From a virus: a stretch of DNA of 64,000 nt. Position numbers and translations under genes: made by a program. This document shows positions 33,112 through 45,548 of the stretch, piece by piece; position 1 is the stretch's first letter; every line of letters begins with the position of its first letter. Where the stretch lies: IMG/VR virus record IMGVR_UViG_3300014202_001569, positions 26,218 through 90,217 of that record. The stretch is one strand, 5' to 3'. The notes below the pieces were generated by a model. That model was given only the letters and a program-made list of their open reading frames with translations. It made no database searches and was not told the DNA's origin.

Positions 33112-33190
33112 GATACTTCTCCAGGGGTTGCGTTGCACCTAATATGGTACAATTGCAATAAGGGAGAAAGGGAGTGGGCGACTCCCTGCC

Positions 33191-33797: not shown

Positions 33798-34116
33798 CTG
33801 CGTTTCTCCGTTTGGGGTTGATTGGGCACCTTATCTGGTACAATTGCAATTAGGGGATGATACGAAAAAAGGGAAGAGAGGCGAACCTCTCTTCCCAATG
33901 GTGAGTTAGCGTCGTCGCCTTGACTGCCATTTTGTGTCGGGCTTAGACCGCCAGTTTACGTCGGGCTTAGACGGGCCACACTTCGCAGGCTCCCCAGCTA
34001 CGGGACGTTTGTAGTGCGGGGTAACGTCCCATCCGACCCCTTCACTACTAATCTTGGTACAATTGCAATTAGGCCATGATGCAAACAAAAAAAGGCAGGG
34101 TTTCCCTGCCTTAGCC

Positions 34117-35967: not shown

Positions 35968-36063
35968 GGCGTTCTCCAGTTTGGGGTTCGTTGCACCTAA
36001 TATGGTACAATTGCAATTAGGGGATGATAAGAAAAAAGGCAGGGTTTCCCCTGCCCTTCCCCT

Positions 36064-36576: not shown

Positions 36577-36656
36577 GGTAGACTCCGTTAGGTGTTGGGC
36601 ACCTATTATGGTACAATTGCAATTAGGGTATTATTAGGGCATCCTTGCCCTGCCCC

Positions 36657-36920
36657 TTAGACCATTGCCTTGCCACGCTTGCCGTCGATGCAATCCTTTG
36701 CGGTGCGATACCATTCCGTGCCATCGGACCATGCACGCCATTTCTTGCCGTAGTTGTTCGGGTCGGGATGCCCTGACAGCATGAAGAAGCCAGGAACGCT
36801 CCAGAGGTAGACGGTATCGCCATTGGCCAATGCTGCTTCCAGGTCGGGAGCAAGGGCCGCATAGGGGCGCTTACCGCCAGGGGAAAGGTAGTCACGCAGC
36901 TTGAAGTCTACTTTCGCCAT
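36657..36920 (-). CDS. Cassette ORF
   Basis: Start MAKVDFKL. Confidence 0.7.
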   Translation of the reverse strand: MAKVDFKLRDYLSPGGKRPYAALAPDLEAALANGDTVYLWSVPGFFMLSGHPDPNNYGKKWRAWSDGTEWYRTAKDCIDGKRGKAMV

Positions 36921-37002
36921 GATTGACTCCAGTTTGGGTATCGTTGCACCTATTATGGTACAATCGCAATTAGGGTATAATGGAGTGGGCGACTCCATTG
37001 CC

Positions 37003-37299
37003 CTACGCTGCCTTTTGCTTGGCAAGAAGCCATTCGTAGGCTTGTGCCCAGGCATATTCGCGGTCGAAGCGGCCCCAACCGAAATCCCCGCAAGGATGTG
37101 CCTCAAAGTAATGCGGGCTTTTGTCGAGAGTAAACTTGATGCTGCATTCCGCCATGCCGTCGTTGAAGATGTGTTCTTGCCACTGATAGCCCGCTGCCAG
37201 GAACGCTTTCTGAATCTTTTCGATCATGACTGACTCCTTTGGGGTTGCGTTGCACCTAACATGGTAGCCCTTTGCGTCACACATCAGAAGCCATCGCAT
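37003..37299 (-). CDS. Fused cassette ORF ending -KAA (internal second start at 37227)
   Basis: MRWLLMCDAKG is in frame with MIEKIQKAF across a half-motif. Confidence 0.6.
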   Translation of the reverse strand: MRWLLMCDAKGYHVRCNATPKESVMIEKIQKAFLAAGYQWQEHIFNDGMAECSIKFTLDKSPHYFEAHPCGDFGWGRFDREYAWAQAYEWLLAKQKAA

Positions 37300-37387
37300 T
37301 GCTATTCTCCTTTGCGTTGCACCTATTATGGTACAATTGCAATTAGGGGATGATAGGAAAAAAGGCAGGGTTTCCCCTGCCTTCCCG

Positions 37388-37630
37388 TTAGGCGGCGATT
37401 TTCTCGGTAACGTCGAAGAGAAGCCATTCCTTGGCATTGGCTGGCGTGATGTAGAAGAAATCCCACAGACCATGCTTGACTGGCAACTGCCATTCCGTGG
37501 GACGAGTTTTCCACGTTTTCAGCTTGCCATTGACACGGCAGCGCTTGGCCGAACCATCCGAATTGCGGGCGGTCTTGTGGTAGATCGTCTTGCCCTTGTA
37601 GAAACCAGCGGCCAATTCCTTCGTAATCAT
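37388..37630 (-). CDS. Cassette ORF ending -KIAA
   Basis: Start MITKELAA; RVNGKLKTWKTRP motif. Confidence 0.75.
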   Translation of the reverse strand: MITKELAAGFYKGKTIYHKTARNSDGSAKRCRVNGKLKTWKTRPTEWQLPVKHGLWDFFYITPANAKEWLLFDVTEKIAA

Positions 37631-37751
37631 TCCATTCTCCAGTGGGGTTGTTGGGCACCTATTATGGTACAATTGCAATTGAGACGGGAGTGGCGTAGGT
37701 TTGCCTACCTTACGCTGACAGCACCACGCTGCCAGGCCACTCCCGCCTCGT

Positions 37752-40951: not shown

Positions 40952-42061
40952 CTACTTCTTATTGAATAAACCCTTCAAGATGGAATCTTCCGCCTTCAAC
41001 CATACCTCCTTGAGCGGAACCTTATGCTTGCGGGCATTGAACAACACGCCAGTAAACACCGTCTCACCCTCAATCAAGATGGCAAAATCCTTCTGGTTCT
41101 CTTCATCCTTGACGCAGTGCCACAACGATTCCAATTCATTGTAAGCACCATCTACCTTGCCCTTGTAATGCTTGAAACAATCCGTAATTTCAGGATACGT
41201 CGCAAGCAATTCGTCGCCTTCACCCTCCAAGATGAACGGCAACAGAGTCGAAGGATTGTAAAGCGCGTCACCATTCGCACCCTTCATCTTATGCAGCGAT
41301 AGATAACGCTTGTTCTTGATCTTCCAACGACGGTTCGCGTCATCCTTCACAACGCAACCTTCCCACGTCGCTTCTGGCTGCGAATTGACGTAATCCGTTA
41401 CGTCGTCAGCACTTCGGAGCGAATACTGGCCAACCGTCTTGAACAGTGGGACATTTTGCGGGCCAACTTCTTCTTCGCCACAGAATGCGGAAAGCTGGTA
41501 GACGCACGGCTGAGCATACTCCCGAACCACCTTGTTCCAAAGGGAGCAAAACTCGCAAGCGTAACTCAACGAAGGATCAAGGTACAATTGTAATTCTTGC
41601 AAGTCCTTGATGCCCAGCGCCTGTAAGATACCTTCCTTCCAGGTGAAGGAAGCTGGCATCTTATGGTAGTTCGCCTGCCATTCGGTGTTGAACATGCCCA
41701 TGTTCGCGTAGGAACCACGGGTATTCACACGCCATTCGCCATCGAAGTGATAGAACAGCAGCAAGCTGCCGTCTACCTTCTCCAGCGCAACAGACTTATC
41801 CCAATTGAACAGCGGCATTTCGTCCGCTACTTCACCCCAATTGAAAAATCGGGGGAAGGCACGCGCCACCAGCGAATGGTCCTCAGTGTTGAGAACTAAG
41901 CCACGGCATTCGCGGACAATGGGATCAGTCTTCGGAGAGTCGATTTGGCTATAGTTCAGGATAGCCAGGGGAAGCGTATCATGGCGATTGACGGAGATAT
42001 GTAGTTCCGTTTCCAGGTCCGTCAGAGTCTTGCCAGAACGCAGATAGTCGATAGTCTTCAT
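40952..42061 (-). CDS. rnl1: RNA ligase, T4 Rnl1 family
   Basis: RECRGLVL, RAFPRFFNWGE, EKVDGS (adenylation Lys), EGCVV, KIKNKRY. Confidence 0.9.
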   Translation of the reverse strand: MKTIDYLRSGKTLTDLETELHISVNRHDTLPLAILNYSQIDSPKTDPIVRECRGLVLNTEDHSLVARAFPRFFNWGEVADEMPLFNWDKSVALEKVDGSLLLFYHFDGEWRVNTRGSYANMGMFNTEWQANYHKMPASFTWKEGILQALGIKDLQELQLYLDPSLSYACEFCSLWNKVVREYAQPCVYQLSAFCGEEEVGPQNVPLFKTVGQYSLRSADDVTDYVNSQPEATWEGCVVKDDANRRWKIKNKRYLSLHKMKGANGDALYNPSTLLPFILEGEGDELLATYPEITDCFKHYKGKVDGAYNELESLWHCVKDEENQKDFAILIEGETVFTGVLFNARKHKVPLKEVWLKAEDSILKGLFNKK

Positions 42062-45005: not shown

Positions 45006-45071
45006 GAGAAACCTCCAGAGAAAAGAGAAAGTTTGTTACTCGCACTTAGTTTGGTACAATTGCAATTGGAA

Positions 45072-45548
45072 TTAGAACCTTACCTTGTTCCAAGTCCAGA
45101 CGAACGGATACGCAACCGCCGTCTTGATTCGTTGCCACGCAGCCGCCTTCATCTCAGCGATGATTTCGGCCACCATCCCCCGCACCACTTCCTTGTTCAC
45201 CAGCGCCGCACAATGTTCCTTCACTTGCGCCAGCACCGCTTCCTTGATGTCATCATACTTGCTCTCAATGCAAGTCTCGATTTCATCCTTTGCCTTCACC
45301 TCGATTTCATCCCACCAGTCGTAATCCCGCACCGCATCATGGATTGCGTCGGAGAAGTCGTGGTCATTCATCGCCTTCTCAACCGCATCGTCCACGTCGA
45401 TTTCGTCGCGGATAGCACTCTTCACCTCGTCGGAGAAGTCGTGATTCTCCAGAGCCGACTCCACCTCATCCTTGAAGTCACGCTCACCAAGATACGCCTC
45501 GATGCCTTCATTGATGATCGTTTCCAACTGCTCGCCAAGTCCGCTCAT
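45072..45548 (-). CDS. Acidic helical-repeat protein
   Basis: HDFSD repeated; very D/E-rich. Confidence 0.7.
   Translation of the reverse strand: MSGLGEQLETIINEGIEAYLGERDFKDEVESALENHDFSDEVKSAIRDEIDVDDAVEKAMNDHDFSDAIHDAVRDYDWWDEIEVKAKDEIETCIESKYDDIKEAVLAQVKEHCAALVNKEVVRGMVAEIIAEMKAAAWQRIKTAVAYPFVWTWNKVRF

Follow-up and report, generated by a model that had tools for sequence, protein, structure and literature searches.

The early genes of the virus sequenced here are each preceded by a copy of the same conserved motif. At one locus on the minus strand of the window (the whole stretch of 64,000 nucleotides analyzed, bases 245656-309655 of a 340,934-bp IMG/VR virus record with an estimated completeness of 68%), this arrangement takes an irregular form: a complete motif is followed by an open reading frame (ORF) of 11 codons, which continues directly into the downstream half of a second motif and from there, in frame, into a gene whose product begins MIEK. 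The locus raises the question of how half a motif came to be joined to another reading frame, and of what this implies for the expression of the MIEK gene. An earlier note had interpreted it as two cassettes fused at the GTAC core of the motif by deletion or recombination, with a chimeric N-terminal extension as the outcome. The evidence assembled here makes it probable that one illegitimate deletion fused the two cassettes, leaving an ordinary deletion scar.

Cassette array and candidate early promoter

The source of the record is a giant uncultured phage, and the locus lies in its early-gene block of about 80 small unrelated genes. From approximately 28.9 kb onward every gene of the window is on the minus strand, and the 16-nt core of the motif (TAATTGCAATTGTACC) is found in 66 minus-strand copies with at most three mismatches in the window, where shuffled sequences predict fewer than one. 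Applied to the whole 340,934-bp record, the same threshold yields 82 copies, 81 of them between record positions 274,600 and 336,100 and a sole outlier at 109,737. Copies stand 30-40 nt, or exactly 9 nt, 5′ of a start codon, and usually about 10 nt after a hairpin that often carries a T run. This composite joint (hairpin, spacer of about 10 nt, motif and leader) lies between small ORFs at the 66 window sites. Each early gene carries its own copy of the motif together with a conserved leader, and most end in a hairpin. Since the roughly 80 ORFs located behind motifs display no detectable mutual similarity, the array is not made of duplicated genes.

Two weight matrices were built for the motif, one genome-wide from the 82 copies and one from the array only. 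Information is concentrated at motif positions 2-17 (AATTGCAATTGTACCA; 1.0-2.1 bits each), and a weaker AGG follows about 6 nt downstream of these informative positions. In three giant phages (the array at 28947-63682 on the minus strand of the window; G001, loci L062-L064; G002, loci L065-L067) an ATG falls exactly 9 nt past GTACC at 12/81, 20/70 and 11/44 sites, respectively, with only 0-4 sites at the adjacent offsets in these three large genomes. The ATGs in this spike open cassette ORFs and lack a ribosome-binding site (RBS). Leaderless mRNAs start with their own AUG, and the spacing of these RBS-less ATGs argues that the motif is a promoter with transcription beginning at about the tenth base after GTACC. 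On the sequence pattern, an early promoter is the best reading of the motif, and many early mRNAs of these phages would be leaderless. The common orientation of the sites and their location behind terminators also back the promoter reading.

The motif is not a sigma-70-type promoter. A consensus scan of positions 36600-37750 returned no sigma-70-like −35/−10 pair, and the conserved block consists of 16 contiguous bases that end about 10 nt before the predicted start. The 68%-complete record yielded neither a T7-like nor a multisubunit RNA polymerase, and its one match to sigma-70 region 2, at 136030, is far from the array.

Relatives were found in G001 (373 kb), G002 (390 kb) and a 7.7-kb metagenome contig (L059), and the 595-kb phage LR756511.1 also has cassette genes in common with the studied phage. 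The same array architecture is present in all four, with variant motifs (CTTAGCTGTACC, CTTAGTTGTACC, CAGCTGTACT and AAGCTGTACT). Only TGTAC(C/T) is conserved across the clade; the bases upstream of it are lineage-specific. The 6-10 bases 5′ of TGTAC(C/T) read TTGCAAT-, CTTAGC-, CTTAGT-, -CAGC- or -AAGC- depending on lineage, a pattern of variation that looks as if these bases were co-evolving with a specificity factor.

Three further minus-strand sites in the window are worth recording. At 33967-34071 a full motif leads into G+C-rich, self-complementary sequence instead of a convincing ORF (21 codons), and may represent a small RNA cassette. In the motif at 45053-45074 the 6-nt word CAATTG is reiterated (TAATTCCAATTGCAATTGTACC), a small slip in the palindromic part of the promoter. 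Within a 369-aa ORF (40952-42061), a word resembling the 5′ half of the motif (GAATTACAATTGTACC, 41581-41596) stands without a 3′ half and may be an internal promoter or a chance occurrence.

Anatomy of the fused locus

Read along the minus strand, the locus begins with the TAA stop codon of an upstream 80-aa gene (37390-37388) and the intrinsic terminator of that gene (37358..37381), which combines a 7-bp stem (GGCAGGG/CCCTGCC), a GAAA loop and a run of six T. A spacer (TATCATCCCC) separates this terminator from a complete motif, designated P1 (37316..37345), in which the core TAATTGCAATTGTACC is joined to the downstream half ATAATAGGTGCAAC in an exact match to the consensus; the pattern described above would place its transcription start near 37320. 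An RBS (CAAAGGAG, 37307..37314, repeat family D2) is positioned 7 nt 5′ of an ATG at 37299, which opens the 11-codon stub ORF MRWLLMCDAKG (37267..37299), a sequence without a second copy in the genome. The stub ends at the junction GGGC|TACC (37266..37267), which coincides with a codon boundary. Beyond it lies an orphan 3′ half of the MIEK promoter (TACCATGTTAGGTGCAACGCAA, 37245..37266) that lacks the 12 most conserved bases; the last four bases of the motif and the family-typical leader that belong with this half occupy 37266-37228. The MIEK gene (37003..37227; 74 aa, stop codon at 37005-37003) retains its own RBS (CAAAGGAG, 37234..37241), located 6 nt 5′ of its ATG. Past its stop codon, a hairpin with a 7-bp stem and no T run (36980..36998) marks the beginning of the next joint, with its motif at 36972. 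The stretch 37299-37003 is open in a single frame and would encode 98 aa from the ATG of the stub. The succession of a complete joint, the stub and a half joint leading in frame into MIEK, as initially described, is thus read directly from the sequence.

The position of the break can be established by comparison with the canonical motif. The 12 bases 5′ of TACC match TAATTGCAATTG at only 2/12 positions and the match is full from position 13 onward, so the break falls between motif positions 12 and 13. The earlier assignment of the breakpoint to G|TACC is correct only in the coordinates of the canonical motif: the base that precedes TACC is a C and no GTAC is left. The 12 lost nucleotides, at 1.0-2.1 bits per position, held most of the information in the motif and include the TG of the clade-wide core TGTACC.

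The orphan half is not a chance resemblance. Under the genome-wide matrix its score is 21.3 bits, whereas random orphans in the 341 kb reach 12-14 bits at best; under the array-only matrix it obtains 20.6 bits, which exceeds the 19.0-bit median of complete sites. The word TAGGTGCAAC has six exact occurrences, and this copy is the only one from which the upstream half is missing. No other orphan half rises above noise among the approximately 200 sites contained in the 341-kb record and in the 60-kb arrays of G001 and G002, and the scar is therefore a lone event among these sites.

That singularity bears on the proposal that the GTAC core is a hot spot, which it does not support, and on the wider idea of site-specific cutting and joining at the invariant G|TAC of the promoter core, with cassettes moving in the manner of an integron. 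In integrons an integrase cuts at sites that are imperfect inverted repeats, and the cassettes usually have one promoter in common. The studied array resembles integrons in being composed of single small genes with a repeated site between them and a content that varies among relatives, and heavy cassette shuffling among those relatives, a break placed exactly at the boundary before TACC and a possible second, decayed half copy 27 nt upstream are all in keeping with such cutting. If it did occur, this clade would be moving its cassettes by site-specific recombination at the promoter and not by homologous exchange. Nevertheless, the repeat here is a promoter and shows no evidence of site-specific cutting, the ~200 sites of three phages (the studied genome G000, G001 and G002) contain one such event, and the left endpoint lies in unique sequence with no similarity to the motif beyond the 2/12 matches. 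We regard site-specific joining as very improbable.

Assembly artifacts are a natural concern at a locus of this kind, given that about 80 near-identical joints of up to ~70 nt are a known hazard for short-read assemblers; the 77-nt P1 joint, for instance, is identical to the joint at 36019 at 69/77 positions. A chimera produced at the repeated motif during metagenome assembly would, however, be expected to look different, because the collapse of a repeat joins sequences within their shared part, so that the motif comes out whole. Sequence to the left of the junction is single-copy in the genome and so offers an assembler no alternative path, and an identical 74-aa product is encoded on three contigs, one of them 623 kb in length, although this is a match at the protein level. 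There is very little probability that the junction is such an artifact.

Ancestral state and origin of the fusion

Orthologues of the MIEK gene in three relatives (L059, L060 and L061) provide the intact cassette with which the studied locus can be compared. In all three the gene is preceded by a complete motif of the lineage type, and the distance from TAC(C/T) to the ATG is 31-36 nt, compared with 35 nt in the studied phage. Judging from these orthologous loci, the half motif corresponds by position to the promoter that belonged to the MIEK gene itself and is what remains of it, as first suggested.

The protein sequences are equally clear on which form came first. Close homologues of MIEK comprise 22 sequences in three 90%-identity clusters, with lengths of 73-79 aa, or of 101-103 aa when a Cys-rich C-terminal tail is present; the nearest relative (P0005, 84% identity) is encoded on a 4,285-bp contig. 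All 19 homologues that were aligned begin within 4 residues of the MIEK start, and the 98-aa form is absent from a collection of 15 billion proteins. Such uniform starts argue that the N-terminal fusion is derived and not ancestral. The chimeric extension that had been proposed is therefore a derived feature at the level of the reading frame; as a protein, to judge from the sequence, it is only possible, because the MIEK gene keeps an RBS and ATG of its own.

A selected arrangement, in which the dual start or an upstream ORF regulates MIEK or yields a functional longer isoform, would also account for the open frame and for the good RBS found at both starts. Distant members of the family often have 10-100 extra N-terminal residues, suggesting that the fold tolerates additions. 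Against selection, 13 of the 24 extra residues are promoter and leader translated in frame, and other copies translate similarly; none of the close homologues has the extension, and the long leader (93 nt) shows no unusual degree of structure (z = +1.2) and no match to an Rfam family. We therefore hold it highly doubtful that the arrangement was selected. The family itself comprises 147 clusters of ~70-aa proteins at E ≤ 0.001 among 1.84 billion representatives, and neither MIEK nor its longer relatives match any Pfam or PHROG family. The structural model of MIEK (pLDDT 96.9) has an alpha-beta-beta-beta-alpha layout, and a fold search returned dsRBD-like topology and T7 Gp1.2 at Z ~7, a level that the tool flags as common. 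As modeled, the protein is weakly similar to the T7 Gp1.2 dGTPase inhibitor, with a dsRBD-like layout, and many distant family members bear additional N-terminal sequence.

The other side of the junction is represented by the stub alone. No intact cassette beginning MRWLLMCD, as the fusion of two cassettes would lead one to expect, was recovered: a degenerate back-translated pattern had 0 matches in IMG/VR, and blastn-short and tblastn searches of the whole genome and all fetched loci returned only the stub itself. For this reason the lost gene is hypothetical, and the stub is presumed to be its 5′ end. The stub nonetheless has the hallmarks of one: it follows the P1 joint, with its 69/77 identity to another joint, and has an array-type leader of the shorter type and a well-spaced RBS and ATG, features that together give it the look of a true cassette 5′ end.

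One candidate for its identity was considered and dropped. The genes located 5′ of MIEK in relatives (MAQR.. in L059, MRYADRFC.. in L060 and MIALEH.. in L061; MAQR.. also in L058) have no homologues in the studied genome, which made it attractive to see in the stub a remnant of one of them. Comparison of the stub with the N-termini of these genes, however, gave similarity at chance level (ranks 25 and 98 of 113), a comparison in which 11 residues afford little power.

Taken together, these observations outline the event that we consider probable. A single illegitimate deletion would have had its left endpoint 11 codons into a small gene and its right endpoint between positions 12 and 13 of the MIEK promoter motif. 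Lost with it would be the body of that gene, the terminator and spacer that followed, and the upstream 12 bases of the MIEK motif. The MIEK gene, left without a promoter of its own, would now be transcribed from the P1 of its vanished neighbor, with a leader of ~93 nt that contains two good RBSs and in-frame ATGs. The ancestral 74-aa protein could still be made from the second start, and the 98-aa form would be possible from the first. That the event was a deletion rather than an insertion, that the half motif is inactive and that either form is translated are in turn deductions; as regards the second, a half motif deprived of the core TG and of all lineage-specific bases should not fire. The original suggestion of a deletion or recombination at the motif holds in outline for the deletion, and not for recombination, as only one endpoint is located in a motif. 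Homologous exchange between two motifs or joints was rejected, since such an exchange regenerates a whole motif and cannot yield a half motif beside unique sequence, and here one endpoint is in unique sequence.

The alternative to a loss is a gain. A patch of 68 nt, consisting of a 3′ half, a leader, an RBS, an ATG and 30 bases, could have been inserted between the G and the TACC of an intact MIEK promoter through misaligned exchange or template switching among promoter copies, in which case the stub would never have been coding and no gene would have been lost. Formally, the locus is laid out as an insertion would be (5′ half, 3′ half, patch, 3′ half). The orphan half and the corresponding part of P1 are 91% identical (20/22) and share the rarer variant GCAACGC; when the leader is included, the nearest full copy of the orphan half is at 33161 (27/34). 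The stub may also contain a third, decayed copy of the 3′ half (37267..37293), where it matches the P1 half and leader at 16/27 positions, although this identification is uncertain: with a background of 2e-4 per position, the match has p of approximately 0.01 for the interval and was noticed post hoc. It could be a decayed older half copy hinting at repeated events at this spot, or a coincidence. The shared variant and the possible third half would fit local reiteration and constitute the evidence against a clean deletion.

Beyond the 22-nt half and the RBS, however, the patch is unrelated to the sequence that follows the half motif. Its leader is of a different, shorter type and has a well-spaced ATG of its own, as if it belonged to a separate cassette, and Tandem Repeats Finder detected no array; a simple tandem duplication was discarded on the same result. 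Insertion would moreover require a donor fragment with exactly these ends, where deletion requires one event. An inserted patch is thus unlikely, if not negligibly so, as the source of the junction.

A deletion of this kind agrees with the way in which the arrays of these phages appear to evolve. Cassette genes shared with LR756511.1, G001 and G002 are found in scrambled order, and the MIEK gene has different neighbors on both sides in all four genomes compared, which suggests that single cassettes are routinely gained and lost in this clade. The MAQR gene lies 5′ of the MIEK orthologue in L059 (3608-3905) and, in LR756511.1 (L058, 4978-5320), 5′ of the orthologue of the gene at 36920 in the window; these placements hint that MAQR-MIEK-MKVDF was the older order and that different lineages may since have lost different cassettes from it. 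Searches for the wider distribution of the locus yielded little. Single-protein scans of IMG/VR with MIEK and both its neighbors returned nothing, no closer relatives were obtained by tblastn against GenBank phages or in GTDB genome contigs, and the exact 16-mer had single chance matches only in IMG/VR.

Cassette loss in comparison with known phage systems

The closest parallels to the array are the PeSL cassettes of T4-type phages, in which joints made of a terminator and an early promoter flank single small orphan genes of the hyperplastic region (Arbiol et al. 2010, PMC2839356; Comeau et al. 2014, PMC4122927). Related phages differ in which PeSL cassettes they carry and in what order, and the cassettes are transcriptionally insulated, so that their loss or gain is tolerated (PMC2839356, PMC4122927). 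The studied array shares with them its composite joints, its small genes and a variable content and order of cassettes. It differs in three respects: PeSL promoters are sigma-70-like, with a −35/−10 pair that the motif described here does not have; copy density is far greater in this phage, with 66 copies in 35 kb; and PeSL cassettes recombine by homologous exchange between two joints, from which a whole joint emerges, whereas the scar has only one endpoint within a joint.

Spontaneous deletions of small non-essential genes have been described in the hyperplastic region of T4 (Mosig et al. 1998, as summarised in PMC2839356). To judge from that summary, the T4 deletions are similar to the one proposed here in that small early genes are removed, the remainder is fused, a neighboring promoter takes over and the phage is viable. 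They differ from the present case, where one end is in a stub ending in GGGC and the other in a promoter core, in a single event from which no rule can be drawn.

Dozens of copies of a phage-specific promoter motif also drive short early transcripts in the giant phages phiKZ and AR9, which use their own multisubunit RNA polymerases (PMC8244752, PMC5312081). The use of one promoter motif in dozens of copies is common to these phages and to the studied one, but no multisubunit or T7-like polymerase was detected in the 68%-complete record; phiKZ showed no leaderless transcripts (PMC8244752), whereas many are predicted in this clade.

On its own, the scar is a minor feature, yet it offers a clean natural example of an array that would have lost a gene without silencing the next one, because a neighboring promoter takes over. 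The locus amounts to a natural mutant, in which transcript mapping would show whether the motif can initiate without its 12 upstream bases. It would likewise serve to test whether a second in-frame start gives rise to a longer protein. The surrounding system is the more deserving subject, with its non-sigma-70 promoter built on the clade-wide core TGTACC, upstream bases that are lineage-specific, many predicted leaderless mRNAs and scrambled cassettes in phages of 340-600 kb.

The composition of the record has peculiarities of its own. CAGCTG is nearly absent from the whole record (5 occurrences against 42 expected), and GTAC and GATC are both under-represented, with 400 GTAC outside the array against 675 expected. 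These depletions may reflect avoidance of restriction. Despite the rarity of CAGCTG in the studied record, the related contig L059 carries this word within its own promoter motif.
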